From positions 1 through 5,460 of the IMG/VR virus record IMGVR_UViG_2778261570_000010: DNA of 5,460 nt; one strand, written 5' to 3'. The number at the start of each line of letters is the position of its first letter. Position 1 is the stretch's first letter. The stretch comes from a virus. Lineage: Duplodnaviria; Heunggongvirae; Uroviricota; Caudoviricetes. Below the pieces are notes generated by a model. The model was given only the letters and a program-made list of their open reading frames with translations. It was not told the DNA's origin and did no database searches. Positions 1-5,460 of the stretch are shown here, one piece after another. Made by a program: the position numbers and the translations under genes.

Positions 1-106
1 TGGGGCTTTTCTCTATCTGCCTTTTGGTGTTCATGCCTGAGACAGATAGCCTCAAGCACCCGCTGCAATCCTACTTAACTCTGCCGTTACAGCAAACCGT
101 TTTCGC

Positions 107-130
107 CCGATATGGGAATTCCCATATCGG
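107..130. repeat. Perfect 24-bp palindrome CCGATATGGGAATTCCCATATCGG centred on GAATTC; function unknown
   Basis: Read directly: positions 107-118 are the exact reverse complement of 119-130. No T-tract follows on either strand, so it is not a canonical intrinsic terminator. Lies about 120 bp downstream of the minus-strand binding-protein gene. Confidence 0.5.
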
Positions 131-195
131 AATGAATTCAGTTCACCTGGCGAGGCTTAGCGTACAATTTTTTCCGTTTTGTGAGCTGCCCCTAC

Positions 196-213
196 ATGCC
201 GCTGGCGCGGCAT
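196..213 (-). repeat. GC-rich stem-loop (7-bp stem ATGCCGC/GCGGCAT, 4-nt loop) with a partial REP-like flank (CCGGATGC on the minus strand)
   Basis: Inverted repeat seen in sequence, 37 nt downstream of the stop of the 250-1008 gene on the minus strand. Resemblance to enterobacterial REP elements is partial and from memory. No U-tract follows, so it is a possible 3' mRNA-stabilising hairpin rather than a terminator. Confidence 0.3.
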
Positions 214-249
214 CCGGAAAAAGAATCCACGTCCTGAAGAACGAGGATG

Positions 250-1008
250 TCAAGTGCCTTTCCTGGTCCAGCCATATTTTTTGAATGCAGGCGCCGCTTC
301 ATCGGTTTGTAGCCATTCTGCAAATCGACGGGTTTCATCATTTGCATCCTGACGTACTGTAATGTTCATATCACGCCATATCACGTAGTCTGGCGCTATT
401 TCCACGACATCACCAATTTCTGGATTACTGGCTGCCCAGTCAGCCCAGGTTATCCAGACATCTGCTCCAGGCTGATTCTCAAGAGCCTTACGTGCAGTTC
501 CGCTATTGGGCGCATATAAAATAATATTTTTTCGGATTGCGGCGACAGTTTCTATATTCCCTTTACGTCCAGCAATATCTTCCCAGACGCCAGTGCCTGA
601 TGTATTACTGGTACCACCACCATCATTAACAATTACGCCAATCCCAGGTCTGGTCAGGTCGTCAATACTCCGGATATTTTTAGGATTACCTTTCTTTACC
701 AGTAAAATACTTTTTCGCAGATAAAGAGGCTGAATATCTTTTTCACTGAAGCTGTCTTTATGGTCCCGAATGATAGCCAGAGCAGATTGTTCTGATGCGC
801 CAAACAAGATATCTGCATTTTTTTTGGCATCTTCATTCCATTTGTTCTGTGGGCCGTAATGAACGTTCACTATAATACCTGTTTTTTCGGCATAAAGTTT
901 GGCTGCATCAAGCAAGGCTGTATGCGGGCCACCAGGACCATACAGATTGATATCAGCATAAGCAGCAGAAGACAGGAATATTAAAAAACCTGCCATTATG
1001 TTCCTCAT
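250..1008 (-). CDS. Periplasmic substrate-binding protein, ModA-like (type-2 PBP, oxyanion-binding family), with N-terminal Sec signal peptide
   Basis: 252-aa ORF with ATG at 1008-1006, preceded by AAGGAG and a 6-nt spacer. N-terminus MRNIMAGFLIFLSSAAYA followed by DINLY looks like a signal peptide with an AxA cleavage site. The ADILFGAS segment and the C-terminal FKKYGWTRK resemble ModA motifs (PADLFISA, FKRYGFTIK) as I remember them. The gene looks more AT-rich than the replication genes. Confidence 0.75.
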   Translation of the reverse strand: MRNIMAGFLIFLSSAAYADINLYGPGGPHTALLDAAKLYAEKTGIIVNVHYGPQNKWNEDAKKNADILFGASEQSALAIIRDHKDSFSEKDIQPLYLRKSILLVKKGNPKNIRSIDDLTRPGIGVIVNDGGGTSNTSGTGVWEDIAGRKGNIETVAAIRKNIILYAPNSGTARKALENQPGADVWITWADWAASNPEIGDVVEIAPDYVIWRDMNITVRQDANDETRRFAEWLQTDEAAPAFKKYGWTRKGT

Positions 1009-1172
1009 AAAAAACTCCTTTTATTGGTTATCATGAAATAAAGTTATAAACACTACAAATAATATATATTACATCCAGATAAACTTATCCGACTTTACCT
1101 CGTGCATAGCTTGTTATTTAAAGTCAACAAAATAAGGAAAATTATACGCATATTGAAGAGTATAAACCTTAC

Positions 1173-1200
1173 ATGTTGATTACATTTTTGTAATCAACAT
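1173..1200. promoter_or_regulatory. Perfect inverted repeat ATGTTGATTACA-tttt-TGTAATCAACAT (12-bp arms, 4-bp spacer) in the AT-rich region upstream of the binding-protein gene; candidate regulator binding site
   Basis: Read directly: 1173-1184 is the reverse complement of 1189-1200. It sits about 165 bp upstream of the start codon at 1008, in a roughly 250-bp AT-rich non-coding stretch. No flanking T-tract that would make it an intrinsic terminator. Confidence 0.4.
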
Positions 1201-1259
1201 CCTGTTTGGAATAGCCAGCCTTTAATGGATAACTATTTCTGACAATGCAATGAGTATAA

Positions 1260-1738
1260 TCAAGTCCATCTTCCACTGAGAATTTGAGGCGGCATGCTTT
1301 TTCCGGCTCTTGCCGGATATCCGTAATTGTCCATAATCTGCAGATTTATACCTTCTGCATGACCTGTCAGCGAAAATTTGTCCGGTGTTTCTACGGGAAT
1401 GACATCAAAAGTTACACGCACTCGCGTTACCGTGTAGACCTACTTTCCTGCACTTGCAAGATCACAGTGGTGTAACCGTAACAGGAATTTATTCTCTGGA
1501 CCGGCAGTAAATCCCTGAGTGGCGTGGTTCCCATATCAATTTCCCGCCAGGCAGCCTCCATTGCCAGCGTACAGGCTGGAGCCATGACCTGCCCTTTAAA
1601 TCTGGCCCGACCATCCCACCGGACGTGTTCTTCTCCCCTGAACTTAGGTACAGTCATCTCCAGTGGCACAAAAGTGTCAGCGCCATAATTTTTGACCGTT
1701 ATCGCGCTACGGATATTTTGTTGACTGGTGAAAATCAC
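1260..1738 (-). pseudogene. Frame-disrupted ORF remnant of unknown function: GTG-initiated 103-aa frame (1427-1738) continues in another frame down to a stop at 1260-1262
   Basis: The 1427-1738 minus ORF ends at TAA 1427-1429, but a second minus frame is open from about 1439 to TGA at 1260-1262 and encodes protein-like sequence (…VTFDVIPVETPDKFSLTGHAEGINLQIMDNYGYPARAGKS…). Two consecutive protein-like frames separated by one frame change suggest a frameshifted gene. I do not recognise the family. Confidence 0.35.
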
Positions 1739-1867
1739 CCCGCAGAATCAGGCTTGTTCCCTTAACCCGGGCTTTCATCCTGACCGCCGCCTCACTACGA
1801 CCAATCAGACTGCCGATGCATTTTACCTTCATTGTTAGTATCATAATTTCAGGCCTGCACCATCCGC

Positions 1868-2509
1868 TCATTGCCCGGACTTCCGACAAATCCCGGCAAC
1901 CATATCCCGGTGCTTGTTCAGCTCCCGCAGCGCGGCGCAGACTCGCTCCCACTTCTGGACATGACTTTTCGCCCGGCGCAGTTCGCGGTTTGCCATATGC
2001 AGCGATGGTAAAATCAGGCCATTCGCTCGCGTTTCAGTAAACGATGGCAACGATTGCACAATATCAGCCACAGTTTCTGTTTTAATATCTTCCTGTGTTG
2101 CAGCTTCCTGTGCTGGTAAATTACCGCCCGGCATGCAGTAACGAAATTTACCGTTCTGATTAACGCGAATCAGACAACCTTTGCTGATTGCCATTGCCAG
2201 TGATGAGTTCACCCTGCGGGAAGTAATTCTGAACATCAATGCAAGTTCATCAGCAGCTTTAGGACCATGCCGTTCTATCGCCTCAATCAGCATCTGCGCT
2301 GTCACTTTCGGTGCCTGTGTCACAGTGTCATTTTCGTCGCTTTTTTCATTTGTCAGCCACCACATCGAGCCTTTGTTATCTGCCCACCCCCGACGCTTCA
2401 GCTTCCACAGTTCGTTAATCGCTTCATCGCGCGTCATTCCCAGACGTGCTGTAACTTCCTGTGATGAGGCTTTTCCCATCGCTTTCAGTGCGTCAAAAAC
2501 AGTCTCCAT
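1868..2509 (-). CDS. Prophage protein of unknown function with a winged-helix-like N-terminus; possibly DUF1627 family
   Basis: 213-aa ORF with ATG at 2509-2507, preceded by GGAGG and a 6-nt spacer; stop TGA at 1868-1870. The N-terminal METVFDALKAMGKASSQEVTARLGMTRDEAINELWKLKRRGW looks like a small winged-helix DNA-binding fold. The DUF1627 assignment is from memory and unverified. Confidence 0.7.
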   Translation of the reverse strand: METVFDALKAMGKASSQEVTARLGMTRDEAINELWKLKRRGWADNKGSMWWLTNEKSDENDTVTQAPKVTAQMLIEAIERHGPKAADELALMFRITSRRVNSSLAMAISKGCLIRVNQNGKFRYCMPGGNLPAQEAATQEDIKTETVADIVQSLPSFTETRANGLILPSLHMANRELRRAKSHVQKWERVCAALRELNKHRDMVAGICRKSGQ

Positions 2510-2541
2510 AAATTTCCTCCCGGTAAAAATTACTTCTCAAA

Positions 2542-3207
2542 TCAGACAAACCCAGCCGCTTTCCGGCGTTCATACTCCTGTTTCAGCAACTCAATTGGTG
2601 TTGGCCCCGACGGGCGTTTTGGTGCTGCCAGTTGCCGCCGTACGGGCGGAACGCTGAGGCCGTTACCAACATGCTTTGCCCATTTTGTAAGCTGCCGTTC
2701 CGCAAGTCGTTTTAACTCCCCCTCGGTCATCTGCCGCTCAATCCCCTTTGAACGCATCTCGAGGCAAATGTGATACAGCACAGGCTGAGACCACGGGTAT
2801 TTATCGCTCCCGTCGTATCGCCAGGACTCGTTGCGCCAGCGGCGGTACTCCTCCATCACGTTATCCACCGTCAGACCAAATGGATTTGCCCCACTCTCCG
2901 AAATCAGCGCAACAAACTCAGCCAGGTCCGGAGGCCATGTTTCACCCGCCCGGCAGCGGTCCATGCACTGGCGGCAGACCTGTCGGATTTGCTGCTCAGT
3001 CATCGCACCAATCTGTGCAATCCAGAGCTTCGAAGGTGCGGCCCCGTTCTTCTGGGTCCAGCGGTTCGAATAAACCTCCCCCATGAGTTCCCACAGCTTC
3101 CACGCCGTTTCCGTCGAGGATAAATCCGTTTTCACGTTCCCACTGCTCACGTGCTGCCCGAATTTCCTGAACTGCCCGTGATGCGGTGTCACCTGGTGCT
3201 GCTGCAT
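2542..3207 (-). CDS. Replication protein P-like (lambda P family, DnaB helicase loader)
   Basis: 221-aa ORF. Aligns by eye with remembered lambda P: the YPW motif, TEGELKRLAERQL versus TDAELRRKAADEL, and a similar C-terminal tail. ATG at 3207-3205 is preceded by AGGGGG and a 6-nt spacer. That start lies 212 nt inside the O-like ORF in another frame. Internal ATGs at 3084 and 3003 are alternatives, but they would remove residues that align with lambda P. Confidence 0.75.
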   Translation of the reverse strand: MQQHQVTPHHGQFRKFGQHVSSGNVKTDLSSTETAWKLWELMGEVYSNRWTQKNGAAPSKLWIAQIGAMTEQQIRQVCRQCMDRCRAGETWPPDLAEFVALISESGANPFGLTVDNVMEEYRRWRNESWRYDGSDKYPWSQPVLYHICLEMRSKGIERQMTEGELKRLAERQLTKWAKHVGNGLSVPPVRRQLAAPKRPSGPTPIELLKQEYERRKAAGFV

Positions 3208-4036
3208 GGTTTACCCCCTTGCTGACTGGTTTAACCTGCGCCCTGACGTGATTTACGTGACGGGCGAATTTCTGCTCCCACTGAACCTGCGTGAACACTT
3301 TGCCCTCATCGCTCCAGTAATCCCGGAATGCGGCAAGTTCAGCAGGTGTAAATTCCGGCTCCGGCAGAGCCACTCCCCACAGAGCCGCCCGTCGTCGAAA
3401 ATCCCGTGACGGATGCCAGCTATCGGTCATCGGAAATTTTCCGATGGGTTCGCTCAGGCCATCCAGGAATACGGGTGGCACTGCCTGTAACGACAAAACT
3501 TCCTGCTCACTGGTCGGAGCACTCTCGCGTGCGTTATGTGTGGGGTTTAGATCTTTGGGTTCCTTTGGGTTCCGTGATCCGTTTTTGGGTGTCTTTGATG
3601 GAAAATTTGGGTGTCTTTGGTTATTTTCCATGCAGCTAAGAGTTCCGTTTTTGGGTCTGTTTTGTGCTGAAACATAACCATTTTCGGTACTGTTTTTATT
3701 AACAGTACCAATTTTACCCACCTTTAAAGACTCCCGTTTTTGGGTGTATTCAGGCTCGGCAACACTTTCTTCTACACCGATAAGTCGGTACACTACGATT
3801 TGCTTTGTTCGGCCTTTTCTCTCACCGGTATCAACAATTAACCCAATCTCCATCAGGTGTCGTAAGCTGTCCTGCACAGTCTTTTTGTTCAGTTCCGTTA
3901 CTTCTGCCAGGGCAGATACAGACGGGTATGCACACAAATCGGCACCGCACATATCAGCAAGCCAGGTCAATACTGACTTACTGGATGAACTGCCGGTTTT
4001 CACCTTTTTAGCCCATCGTAGTGCATCGATACTCAT
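2996..4036 (-). CDS. Replication initiator (O-like): N-terminal HTH DNA-binding domain, low-complexity linker, C-terminal DnaT-like ssDNA-binding domain
   Basis: Start chosen at ATG 4036-4034 (MSIDALRWAKK…), preceded by AGGGG and a 5-nt spacer. The longest ORF begins at a TTG at 4111 with no SD. The C-terminal region (GKFPMTDSWHPSRDFRRRAALWGVALPEPEFTPAELAAFRDYWSDEGKVFTQVQWEQKFARH) closely matches the C-terminal domain of E. coli DnaT as I remember it. The linker has repeated PKNG motifs encoded by the iterons. Stop TGA at 2998-2996. Confidence 0.8.
   Translation of the reverse strand: MSIDALRWAKKVKTGSSSSKSVLTWLADMCGADLCAYPSVSALAEVTELNKKTVQDSLRHLMEIGLIVDTGERKGRTKQIVVYRLIGVEESVAEPEYTQKRESLKVGKIGTVNKNSTENGYVSAQNRPKNGTLSCMENNQRHPNFPSKTPKNGSRNPKEPKDLNPTHNARESAPTSEQEVLSLQAVPPVFLDGLSEPIGKFPMTDSWHPSRDFRRRAALWGVALPEPEFTPAELAAFRDYWSDEGKVFTQVQWEQKFARHVNHVRAQVKPVSKGVNHAAAPGDTASRAVQEIRAAREQWERENGFILDGNGVEAVGTHGGGLFEPLDPEERGRTFEALDCTDWCDD
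3551..3752. other. Putative phage origin of replication: iteron cluster (core TTTGGGT, longer form CCGTTTTTGGGTGTCTTTG) plus AT-rich segment with a 9-bp inverted repeat, inside the O-like gene
   Basis: Direct repeats seen at 3554-3560, 3564-3570, 3579-3597, 3606-3619, 3645-3663 and 3734-3752. AT-rich stretch at 3664-3730 contains GGTACTGTT-ttttat-AACAGTACC (3686-3709). The layout (iterons plus AT-rich region in the initiator's interdomain linker) mirrors ori-lambda inside gene O. Confidence 0.55.
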
Positions 4037-4559
4037 ACGAACCCCTGGCAGACATTTGTTTATCTGCAAAGTAATATTGATATTGCTGACGATACGCATG
4101 CTTGAAAGCAATAGCTTTTTCTATAAGCTCGTCAGTCTCACGTTCCACAACAGCTGGATCCGCAAAAAGCAGCCCGGACTCCACCACATCGCCATATTCT
4201 TTGTTTAATCCGGCGATCATGTACGTAATGCTTTTTCCATCACTGATCTCACGATACAACCTGAAATCACTAATTCGGATAGCCTCCATAATTGCCGGAA
4301 TCAGCGCCGTGAATTTTTTCCGCTTATCCCTGGTGTCGATAGCTTTCCAGCGTTCGAATATCTTCACCCGGTTAACGCCCAGCGCCCGTTGATCAACCTC
4401 GCCATCATTAAACGTGACGCGTTGAACATCGATGTTCGGGCGTTCTTTCAGAGCCCAGAATGCTTCCGTGATTAATATCGTCGCCTGCTCCTGTGTCATT
4501 CCTGGTCGACATATCCAGGCATCCAGAGCCTCACGAGCCTGTTCAGGAGTGATTTTCAT
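4008..4559 (-). CDS. YdaT-family protein (prophage cII-position regulator)
   Basis: 183-aa ORF immediately downstream of the Cro-like gene, overlapping its stop by 17 nt. ATG at 4559-4557; stop TAA at 4010-4008. Resembles remembered Rac YdaT (MKI… N-terminus; the LIPAI…RL segment). Its position matches cII in lambdoid early-right operons. Confidence 0.65.
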   Translation of the reverse strand: MKITPEQAREALDAWICRPGMTQEQATILITEAFWALKERPNIDVQRVTFNDGEVDQRALGVNRVKIFERWKAIDTRDKRKKFTALIPAIMEAIRISDFRLYREISDGKSITYMIAGLNKEYGDVVESGLLFADPAVVERETDELIEKAIAFKHAYRQQYQYYFADKQMSARGSYEYRCTTMG

Positions 4560-4773
4560 TGTTCAACCGCCCCGCCCGCTTCGTCTTACGATATTCATCA
4601 TAAACTTTGGGATCATACTGAAGCTCCCCGCCAGATGCCTCCTGTAGACGCATCGCGCGACCTTCGGGAACTAAATCCCCTTTCCAGCTATAAAGCGAAG
4701 CCAAACGAATACCTGCTGCTTGTGCAAGTTTTGTTTTTGAACCGAAATACAAAAGAGCGTCAGTTTTAAGCAT
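4543..4773 (-). CDS. dicC: Cro-like HTH repressor, DicC-type
   Basis: 76-aa ORF divergent from the CI-like gene; ATG at 4773-4771 preceded by AAGGTG and a 7-nt spacer. The sequence (MLKTDALLYFGSKTKLAQAAGIRLASLYSWKG…) has the Cro fold signature and matches my recollection of E. coli DicC. The gene symbol is from memory and needs BLAST confirmation. Confidence 0.8.
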   Translation of the reverse strand: MLKTDALLYFGSKTKLAQAAGIRLASLYSWKGDLVPEGRAMRLQEASGGELQYDPKVYDEYRKTKRAGRLNNENHS

Positions 4774-4856
4774 TTAAAACACCTTTATTGTTAGTCATAA
4801 CTAACAAGATAGATGTTAACAAAAACATAGTCAATACGATTTAGCATTAGCTAACT
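4774..4856. promoter_or_regulatory. Divergent dicC/dicA control region with two 14-bp palindromic operator candidates and a candidate leftward promoter
   Basis: Palindromes TTAGTCATAACTAA (4791-4804) and TTAGCATTAGCTAA (4841-4854) read directly. On the minus strand: -35 TTGACT (plus 4834-4829), 17-bp spacer, -10 TATCTT (plus 4811-4806). The first palindrome overlaps the predicted transcription start of dicC; the second ends 2 nt before the dicA ATG. Confidence 0.5.
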
Positions 4857-5264
4857 ATGGAAACAAAAAATTTAACTATCGGCGAACGCATCAGGTATCG
4901 TCGGAAAAACCTCAAACACACCCAAAGGTCTCTTGCTAAAGCCCTGAAAATCTCCCATGTGTCTGTATCACAATGGGAACGGGGTGATAGTGAACCTACA
5001 GGGAAGAACCTTTTTGCCCTCAGCAAAGTATTGCAATGCTCACCAACATGGATTCTATTTGGCGATGAAGACAAGCAACCAACACCACCTGTTGAGAAGC
5101 CAGTTGCCTTATCCCCCAAAGAACTAGAGCTCCTTGAGCTGTTTAATGCACTGCCAGAATCAGAACAGGATACCCAGCTCGCCGAAATGCGAGCTCGAGT
5201 AAAAAACTTCAATAAACTCTTTGAAGAATTACTAAAAGCCCGTCAGCGGACAAATAAAAGATAA
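4857..5264 (+). CDS. dicA: CI-like phage repressor of the DicA type (XRE-family HTH, no S24 peptidase domain)
   Basis: 135-aa ORF, ATG 4857, stop TAA 5262-5264. N-terminal HTH (…HTQRSLAKALKISHVSVSQWERG…) with a helical C-terminus. The sequence matches my recollection of E. coli Qin-prophage DicA, with divergent Cro-like partner. Symbol from memory, unverified. Confidence 0.85.
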   Translation: METKNLTIGERIRYRRKNLKHTQRSLAKALKISHVSVSQWERGDSEPTGKNLFALSKVLQCSPTWILFGDEDKQPTPPVEKPVALSPKELELLELFNALPESEQDTQLAEMRARVKNFNKLFEELLKARQRTNKR

Positions 5265-5286
5265 CATCATCAATGAGTTATCTTTT
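5256..5286 (+). terminator. Weak AT-rich hairpin (AAAAGATAAC … GTTATCTTTT) overlapping the dicA stop codon; possible terminator
   Basis: 10-bp inverted repeat with an 11-nt loop, ending in TTTT, seen in sequence. The stem has only two G-C pairs, so stability and function are uncertain. Confidence 0.25.
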
Positions 5287-5324
5287 ACCACATCAATTAT
5301 GTTAGCTATAGCATACAAAATCAC

Positions 5325-5353
5325 TTGACCGATATGTTAGTCATGGCTAATCT
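5325..5353 (+). promoter_or_regulatory. Candidate rightward promoter (-35 TTGACC, 17-bp spacer, -10 TAATCT) overlapped by a third operator-like palindrome TTAGTCATGGCTAA (5337-5350)
   Basis: Motifs read directly. The palindrome shares the TTAGY-N4-RCTAA pattern with the two sites in the dicC/dicA intergenic region. Location matches the position, as I recall it, of the DicA-repressed dicB-operon promoter downstream of dicA in E. coli K-12. Confidence 0.45.
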
Positions 5354-5430
5354 TGTTTGCATCAACACACCGCACGGTGTTCTCAGCAAACAGTTCCGCT
5401 ACCCCAGCGTTAAGGGGAAATGAGGTCAGC

Positions 5431-5460
5431 ATGGATACTATCGATCTTGGCAACAACGAA
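5431..5460 (+). CDS. 5' end of a small ORF (MDTIDLGNNE…), truncated by the window edge; possibly ydfA-like, first gene of the rightward operon
   Basis: ATG at 5431 preceded by GAGG (5422-5425) and a 5-nt spacer. Only 10 codons are visible. The ydfA resemblance is from memory of the K-12 gene order (dicA, ydfA, ydfB, ydfC, dicF, dicB). Confidence 0.4.
   Translation, partial: MDTIDLGNNE

Follow-up and report, generated by a model that had tools for sequence, protein, structure and literature searches.

A predicted replication origin within an initiator gene

The DNA analysed here is a stretch of 5,460 bp (hereafter the window), positions 1 to 5,460 of IMG/VR virus record IMGVR_UViG_2778261570_000010, which encodes on its minus strand an O-like replication initiator and carries a cluster of short repeats inside the initiator gene. 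Comparative analysis makes it highly probable that these repeats are the initiator-binding iterons of a prophage replication origin, located within the linker-coding part of the initiator's own gene. This interpretation is supported by constraint that acts on the DNA, by the presence of repeats throughout the family of homologous initiators, by consensus sequences that are specific to each lineage, by the dyad symmetry of the copies around an A-tract, by a mosaic junction at the edge of the array, and by a P-like loader gene downstream. Lambda-type origin iterons in an O-like gene had been proposed in an original prediction made from the letters of the window alone, and the comparative evidence strongly supports that proposal.

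The heptamer TTTGGGT occurs on the plus strand at 3554, 3564, 3584, 3606, 3650 and 3739, which bears out the predicted cluster of at least six copies (3554-3745); a seventh occurrence, on the minus strand at 4920, is unrelated. The total of seven compares with 0.93 expected and was reached in none of 200 shuffled sequences, so the clustering is non-random. The array corresponds to amino acids ~96-161 of the O-like protein, between the HTH_36-like and DnaT-like domains, as predicted. The longer form of the repeat had been credited with four copies and does not stand as described: the 19-mer CCGTTTTTGGGTGTCTTTG has one exact copy (3579-3597) and two copies with three mismatches (3645-3663 and 3734-3752), and the fourth, at 3606-3619, shares only the 14-mer TTTGGGTGTCTTTG, the 14-nt end of the 19-mer. 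Two degenerate iterons (b and c in Table 1) are further copies that the original prediction had not included.

The centres of successive iterons, a to h, are 26, 33, 30, 44, 22, 20 and 10 bp apart. Their anatomy was examined in a clade of ten members, comprising the window, Edwardsiella phage EPP-1 and genomes of Enterobacter, Scandinavium, Kluyvera, Plesiomonas, Edwardsiella and Serratia. The clade consensus, AAnAnnCCCAAAAACGGGAnnnTT, was derived from 53 copies. It forms an imperfect dyad of 24 bp in which arms of AA/TT and CCC/GGG flank an A5 tract; the core carries 1.6-2.0 bits of information per position, and most flanking positions carry at most 0.5 bits. Iteron a is invariant in four E. 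coli variants and has an orthologous copy in 10/10 clade members. Iteron e has the symmetric centre AAATTTT in the window; at the same site Scandinavium and Enterobacter have GTACCGTTTTTCCC, an iteron in inverted orientation, and this substitution would fit recognition of a dyad site.

Readings of the array as an RNA element or as a promoter cluster were dropped, because the Rfam scan found no family there and the promoter and terminator scans found no promoter-like or terminator-like site.

Occurrence of repeats across the initiator family

A tblastn search with the 97-amino-acid N-domain found homologues in 73 phage records, of which ten diverse ones were examined, with Rac-SA53, the Rac prophage of E. 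coli K-12 and lambda as a comparison set. All ten, from phages of Edwardsiella, Burkholderia, Acinetobacter, Moraxella and Vibrio, E. coli phage phiV10 and an enhanced biological phosphorus removal (EBPR) podovirus, possess 4-8 direct repeats directly after the domain (nucleotides ~260-500 of the coding sequence). The repeat consensus is specific to each lineage: ACACCCAAAAACGG in the window and EPP-1, ATCCCAAAAACGGGAT in phiV10, GTCCCAAAAACGGGAC in the EBPR podovirus, CCGAAAACGGTAC in Vibrio phage Her, ATGATCCCAAAATTGG in Edno5, AACAGTCCCAAA in Bcep176, AATGAACCCAAA in AP22, GTACCGAAATTGGTAC in Ab105 and AAAGGGGGTACAATTTTGC in Mcat8. The ydaU genes of K-12 Rac and Rac-SA53, which are of the DUF1376 type, lack these repeats.

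A genome scan with a four-sequence alignment as query, limited to one genome per species, added 80 loci, 73 of them with an intact open reading frame (ORF). In these 73, the best 11-mer has a median of six copies in the linker versus three in upstream and downstream controls of equal size (Wilcoxon p about 1e-12). At least four copies are present in 66/73 loci, and homologues with repeats, phage and genomic together, carry 4-10 copies each. Absence of the repeats from homologous O-like genes had been named in advance as grounds for abandoning the proposal; they are clearly present, in 10/10 phage homologues as well as in these 66 loci. Iteron spacings of 17-17-22-22 and 18-18-24-24 bp recur in distant lineages (Acinetobacter, Desulfovibrionaceae and others) with different iteron sequences, and this recurrence suggests that the initiator-DNA complex has a conserved geometry.

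The design in which the origin lies inside the initiator gene, with lambda-like A-tract dyads, appears to extend across the entire family of HTH_36-type initiators, in Gamma-, Beta- and Alphaproteobacteria and in Desulfovibrionaceae, and a practical annotation rule follows: phase-independent repeats should be sought right after the HTH_36 domain.

Constraint on DNA rather than on peptide

The linker encoded by the array has a simple composition, distant homologues repeatedly contain PKNG/PENG/PKIG-like peptides, and slippage does happen at such repeats: perfect 18-24-bp tandems are found in Ab105, Her and Edno5, and in E. coli 2013C_3277 a 10-bp deletion (window 3553-3562) removes one short tandem repeat (CTTTGGGTTC), splitting the initiator gene into separate ORFs for the helix-turn-helix (HTH) and DnaT-like parts and so inactivating the module. 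The repeats might then be a by-product of a low-complexity, slippage-prone linker rich in P, K, N and G, with no function as DNA, but this is extremely unlikely in view of how they are read and conserved. The core ACCCAAA occurs in the window once in codon phase 0, twice in phase 1 and three times in phase 2, and encodes the unrelated peptides TQKR, HPNF, NPK, PKNG and EPKD. The PKNG motif that the iterons had been predicted to encode is read from only two of the six copies (d and f). At least two phases are used in 57 of the 66 genomic loci with four or more copies, and all three in 35; the four annotated iterons of lambda lie in phases 0, 2, 2 and 1.

In pairwise comparisons of the ten clade members, third-position identity at codons for identical amino acids is 0.476 in the N-domain, near saturation, and 0.86 in iteron copy a. 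Over all iteron cores, third positions match the consensus at 169/173 sites and first and second positions at 367/399; the selection of copies with at most two mismatches inflates this third-position figure, but the figure for copy a is free of this bias. Because the repeats have almost invariant synonymous third positions and those of the N-domain are near saturation, the comparison indicates that the constraint acts on the DNA and not on the peptide. Moreover, the spacers are unrepeated and diverge between relatives while the cores persist, the dyad symmetry of the copies would be meaningless for a peptide, and domesticated DopC proteins retain the domain architecture yet reportedly lack iterons (PMC5509034). 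Variation within E. coli (95-99% identity) is too low for a test of iteron conservation and is informative for the inverted repeat only.

A specificity module shared among prophages

The window is mosaic. Positions 2099-3556 are homologous to Rac-SA53, which has a DUF1376 N-domain and the same DnaT-like domain, P-like loader and ydaW, and positions 3554-4043 are homologous to phage EPP-1, which has the same N-domain and iterons and a C-domain of the Phg_2220_C type. Because these blocks meet at 3554-3556, the downstream edge of the array, the N-domain and the iterons travel as one exchangeable specificity module, as in lambdoid phages. The module is found with DnaT-like, Phg_2220_C, lambda-O-like (Edno5, judged by eye against lambda O) and unassigned C-domains, and its partner genes encode P-like loaders, DnaB-like helicases or DUF6475 proteins.

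The N-domain and iteron module is present at 95-99% identity in 909/5426 complete E. coli genomes (~17%), for which the present analysis supplies a concrete predicted origin of three strong sites within ~200 bp. Carriers include O157:H7, O103, O111 and O145 strains, and PPompW prophages that reside next to Stx2a phages.

Weighing the origin interpretation

Several observations weigh against an origin at this site. Only three copies are of full strength, and the short copies g and h are not conserved as ACCCAAA; since Enterobacter, Scandinavium and Kluyvera read AATCTACCAAGGAACCATAAAG there, these two may be incidental. The iterons adjoin the DNA of the N-domain, so their co-inheritance is partly plain linkage. 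No AT-rich tract follows the last iteron (GC content 0.52-0.55), where lambda has its unwinding region. The window protein scores 20.9 bits against HTH_36, under the Pfam cut-off of 25, which homologues with 38-75% N-domain identity pass at 30-49 bits. Direct hhalign comparison of the N-domain family with lambda O gives a weak probability of 6%, so that the case for their homology rests on shared PHROG families: the N-domain of the window alone (91 amino acids) and that of lambda O both match the replication-initiation families phrog_678, phrog_345 and phrog_270. HTH_36 has itself been assigned to lambda O by HHpred (PMC5509034). Finally, the searchable literature yielded no report of binding or replication in this initiator family. 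Searches on iterons with DnaT, prophage, epsilon15, phiV10 and non-lambdoid Shiga toxin (Stx) phages returned no description of these iterons, and the papers on 'ydaU' contain nothing on repeats.

An alternative function for the repeats would be to bind the N-domain for autoregulation, copy-number control or exclusion, by titration or handcuffing, with the start of replication at another place in the prophage. Iteron plasmids use one set of sites for both control and initiation. The downstream end of the array, without a lambda-style AT-rich tract, would be compatible with such a role, and phage growth is known to be inhibited by cloned lambda origin DNA (PMC3349717, PMC4488673). We consider a purely regulatory role very unlikely, because all characterised lambdoid O-type systems have their origin in the iterons within O (PMC7466680), the least stable DNA of the O and P genes sits within the array, the N-domain and iterons are exchanged as a self-contained specificity module, and the window holds no second cluster of the motif. 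An origin role also fits the report that DopC, with the same domains, is without iterons or origin function.

The AT-rich segment and its inverted repeat

An AT-rich stretch containing an inverted repeat had been predicted to follow the repeats. The inverted repeat is exact, with a 6-nt spacer, and GC content is low (0.32-0.33 at 3660-3739), but the segment is internal to the array: in the direction of transcription it comes after the first strong copy and before the second. The lambda arrangement is copied in that the array is inside an O-like gene and not in the position of the AT-rich tract, which in lambda follows the last iteron. GC content is lowest (0.28 in 40 nt) at nucleotides 321-360 of the coding sequence, between iterons a and d, and the least stable 40-mer of the O and P genes is 3688-3727 (deltaG -45.3, versus a window mean of -54.2 with a standard deviation of 4.6). 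With no AT-rich tract after the last iteron, the site of melting has to be guessed, and this least stable segment is the best guess. In phiV10, three tandem AT-rich 12-mers (ATATAACCAGTC, read as QSYNQSYNQSFNQ) are found right after the iterons, at nucleotides 409-445 of the O-like coding sequence; they may represent an unwinding element placed as in lambda, for which the window has no counterpart.

The original prediction named the inverted repeat (3686-3709) beside the iterons. It might be an independent functional element, for instance a hairpin or cruciform at which the duplex unwinds or at which a PriA-type primosome assembles. Such a role, which would suit the perfect 9-bp stem and 6-nt loop within the least stable segment and the DnaT-like domain of the initiator, is very unlikely, and its non-conservation already largely refutes it. 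Alignment with relatives identifies GGTACTGTT and AACAGTACC as the right arm of degenerate iteron b and the left arm of iteron c, respectively, so that the stem pairs the facing outer halves of two dyad-symmetric sites. Identity to the window over 3672-3724 is found in only 13/857 E. coli genomes, and the repeat is imperfect in the other 844 (~98%): the copies of O157 RV06, TUM9757 and 2013C_3277 carry AACAGCACC, the O103 copy carries GGTTCTGTT, and the four aligned E. coli copies, each of them broken, contain no compensating change. Edwardsiella, Plesiomonas, Serratia and Enterobacter lack the hairpin: ordinary iterons occupy these positions, with a further copy in between. Because its arms are facing iteron halves and neither conservation nor compensation is seen, the inverted repeat is best regarded as a side effect of adjacent dyad-symmetric sites and not as a selected element.

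Initiator domains and proposed mechanism

The N-domain of the initiator is joined by a linker rich in P, K, N, G, S and T to the DnaT-like C-terminal domain. The latter had been predicted and is present (amino acids 197-267), aligning to DnaT residues 82-158 (PDB 6aep, 4ou6 and 9zbt; E about 1e-19, best 4e-20), but it represents only the C-terminal domain of DnaT, which forms filaments on single-stranded DNA. The N-terminal oligomerisation domain and the PriB-docking linker of DnaT were not detected, the Pfam and PDB matches covering DnaT 82-158 only, and the place of the DnaT N-terminus is taken by the winged helix. Cryo-electron microscopy has shown helical filaments of the DnaT C-terminal domain on single-stranded DNA and its docking on PriA, and the N-terminal domain is the proposed recruiter of DnaB/DnaC (PMC13377028). 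Because only the C-terminal domain is present and the proposed recruiter domain is absent, the primosome-type helicase recruitment that had been suggested is probably less likely than capture of single-stranded DNA by clustered C-domains, with the loader delivering the helicase.

From these features we infer the following course of initiation, including transcriptional activation from the pR-like promoter and the activity of the origin itself. Rightward early transcription (minus strand of the window) would express the O-like initiator, and its winged-helix N-domain would bind, as dimers, to the iterons with their dyad symmetry and central A-tracts. An O-some-like nucleoprotein complex would assemble on three strong and several weaker sites over ~200 bp, and the AT-rich, least stable segment inside the array (~3677-3727) would melt. 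The clustered DnaT-like C-domains could then bind the single strand so exposed, or form filaments on it, and the lambda-P-like loader, contacted by the C-terminal region, would deliver the host DnaB. Filament formation by the C-terminal domain of DnaT on single-stranded DNA suggests a simple way for such initiators to stabilise the open complex.

A short motif of the form [DN]-[TS]-x-W, with acidic or small residues after it, is a recurrent feature of the C-terminus of O-like proteins regardless of C-domain type (lambda O, ..TNTDWIYGVDL; window, ..DCTDWCDD, 2996-3020; phiV10, ..NSPEAWEDFL; Marinomonas, ..NDTDW). It may be a docking tail for the loader or the helicase.

The prophage and its early operon

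The window shares 95% identity over 2500-4600 with the PPompW prophages of Shiga-toxigenic E. coli and matches Rac-like phages in parts; a prophage of E. coli TUM9757 is 96.6% identical across the full length. The window is the early-right operon, oriented on the minus strand, of a lambdoid prophage of Rac-like/PPompW type (Table 1). The pR-like promoter would drive transcription through the cro and cII/ydaT-like genes, the O-like gene with its iterons, and the P-like gene. The predicted P-like loader gene is indeed found directly downstream of the O-like gene, with matches to PF06992 and phrog_109.

Table 1. Coordinates of features in the window, in order of decreasing position except where one feature lies within another
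Feature	Position	Strand	Remarks
cI-like repressor	4857-5264	+	
pR-like promoter	4834-4806	-	upstream of cro-like gene; consensus match only
cro/DicC-like gene	4773-4543	-	
cII/YdaT-like gene	4559-4008	-	
O-like replication initiator, 346 amino acids	4036-2996	-	phrog_1032 (replication initiation protein), E=1e-88
N-terminal winged-helix (HTH_36-type) DNA-binding domain, amino acids 1-90	3767-4036	-	presumed iteron reader
Iteron array (predicted origin core)	3551-3752	-	three strong, three intermediate or degenerate, two short doubtful copies
Iteron a (strong)	3727-3750	-	core CCCAAAAACGG at 3744-3734, read TQKR
Iteron b (degenerate)	3708-3718	-	core GGTAAAATTGG at 3718-3708, read VGKIG; relatives have full ACACCCAAAAACGGTACTGTT copy here
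Inverted repeat GGTACTGTT-N6-AACAGTACC	3686-3694 / 3701-3709	.	9-bp perfect stem, 6-nt spacer
Iteron c (weaker)	3678-3688	-	core ACCGAAAATGG at 3688-3678, read TENG; repeat copy 3678-3696 at 79%
Iteron d (strong)	3638-3661	-	core CCCAAAAACGG at 3655-3645, read PKNG
Iteron e (weaker)	3601-3619	-	symmetric centre ACACCCAAATTTTCC; core 3611-3601, read HPNF
Iteron f (strong)	3572-3595	-	core CCCAAAAACGG at 3589-3579, read PKNG
Short ACCCAAA copies g and h	3554-3570	-	10 bp apart; doubtful binding sites
DnaT C-terminal-domain-like domain, amino acids 197-267	3236-3448	-	PF17948 64 bits (cut-off 25), E=8e-18
Lambda-P-like helicase loader	3207 (or 3003) to 2542	-	PF06992 E=6.5e-17; phrog_109 (P-like helicase loader) E=1e-62
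DUF1627 YdaW-like gene	2509-1868	-	
Fimbrial-protein pseudogene	~1200-1740	-	frameshifted; cargo, downstream of replication genes
AcfC-family adhesin gene paa	250-1008	-	intact, SBP_bac_11 fold; cargo, downstream of replication genes

The first 29 nt of the O-like gene (4008-4036, from ATG 4036) are shared with the cII/YdaT-like gene, and a longer, TTG-initiated O-like ORF from 4111 is unused in the annotation of the Prokaryotic Genome Annotation Pipeline (PGAP). The O-like and P-like ORFs overlap by 212 nt (2996-3207, minus strand) in different frames; in relatives from Enterobacter, Scandinavium and Kluyvera, the open P frame reaches 227-245 nt upstream of the O stop, and both the P-frame peptide (TETAWRLW..NRWTQKNG..LWIAQIG) and the O tail are conserved in relatives. 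The PHROG P-like profile match starts at amino acid 19 of the long P ORF and the alignment to phiV10 P starts at amino acid 45; PGAP annotates the 153-amino-acid form only, starting at ATG 3003. This overlap of ~200 nt may be a true dual-coding stretch, and it may couple the synthesis of O and P.

Comparison with known systems

The closest parallel is ori-lambda of phage lambda and of the Stx phages 933W and P27 (PMC7466680). There the origin occupies a central part of the initiator gene, the part that encodes the linker joining the DNA-binding N-domain to the C-domain, and the predicted origin of the window has the equivalent position. The iterons of lambda, of the form ATCCCTCAAAACGAGGGA, likewise combine dyad symmetry with an A-tract at the centre, follow one another at intervals of ~20-44 bp and use all three codon phases; iteron e of the window, with its AAATTTT centre, parallels lambda iteron 3 (AAATT centre). 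In lambda, too, a P-like loader gene follows, a pR-type promoter serves the operon, and N-domain and iterons form one exchangeable specificity module. The two systems differ in iteron sequence (TCCCTCAAAACGAGGGA in lambda, versus a CCCAAAAACGG core with AA/TT outer arms in the window) and in packing, the 4-6 iterons of lambda being tightly packed and those of the window, three strong and up to five weak, spread over ~200 bp. The AT-rich tract of lambda follows iteron 4 (PMC7466680), whereas that of the window is inside the array; the C-domain of lambda O is of the Phg_2220_C type and that of the window is like the C-terminal domain of DnaT; and the N-domains appear only remotely related, via shared PHROG families. 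Unlike ori-lambda, the origin of the window is a prediction from sequence. Current understanding is not overturned by these findings, which would place the textbook arrangement in a related initiator family.

The Rac prophage, which has a functional origin, oriJ, belongs to the same prophage family as the window and has the same gene order (repressor, cro/ydaS-dicC, ydaT, O-like gene, loader, DUF1627 gene) in its ydaU-ydaV-ydaW module. Rac-SA53 shares the DnaT-like C-domain, the P-like loader and ydaW with the window at ~84% DNA identity. In contrast, ydaU of both K-12 and SA53 has a DUF1376 N-domain and none of the iterons of the window, and ydaV of K-12 is annotated as a putative ATP-binding protein, not as a P-like loader. 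A different, weak repeat, CAG(A/G)TGTTCAAAC, occurs in K-12 ydaU at nucleotides 354, 387, 420 and 432 of the coding sequence (zone 354-445), in one codon phase; it might be related to oriJ, or it might be due to chance.

Iteron plasmids have multiple direct initiator sites of ~17-24 bp, helically phased and bound by a winged-helix protein, with an AT-rich region nearby; their iterons are normally intergenic, asymmetric and bound by Rep monomers. The window shares with them the multiple directly repeated sites, the winged-helix initiator and the nearby AT-rich region, and differs in that its iterons are inside the coding sequence of the initiator and are dyad-symmetric, as in lambda.

The DopC/DopE pair of Cellvibrionales and Oceanospirillales has what appears to be an identical two-gene plan, an HTH_36 N-domain with a DnaT C-terminal motif followed by a lambda-P-like protein, but DopC and DopE are resident chromosomal genes in which iterons and origin activity are both reported absent (Brezellec et al. 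2017, PMC5509034). Because the window gene is in a prophage, beside cI-, cro- and cII-like genes, and has a full iteron array, it is the phage form and not a DopC gene; it provides an iteron-bearing phage counterpart for the domesticated pair. Matches in Marinomonas were considered as DopC genes with repeats and rejected, as their C-termini are not DnaT-like. The combination of HTH_36, DnaT C-terminal and P-like components exists in working phage modules (the window prophage and phiV10) and need not be a product of domestication, which suggests that the DnaT-like domain predates domestication. More tentatively, and with low confidence, the initiator may be a natural hybrid of a lambda-O-like reader and the filament-forming domain of DnaT, and phage modules of this kind may be the direct ancestors of DopC/DopE. 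As such a hybrid, iteron-bound initiators would hold the origin open with a DnaT-type, DnaA-like filament before the arrival of P-DnaB, and DopC/DopE would have lost the iterons on domestication.

E. coli DnaT itself (primosomal protein I) resembles the window protein over amino acids 197-267, the counterpart of its C-terminal domain that binds single-stranded DNA and forms filaments (PMC13377028). In place of the N-terminal domain and PriB-docking linker of DnaT, the window protein has a sequence-specific winged helix and an iteron-coding linker. The context differs accordingly: DnaT acts in PriA/PriB-dependent restart, whereas the window protein would act in initiation at an origin, together with a P-like loader.

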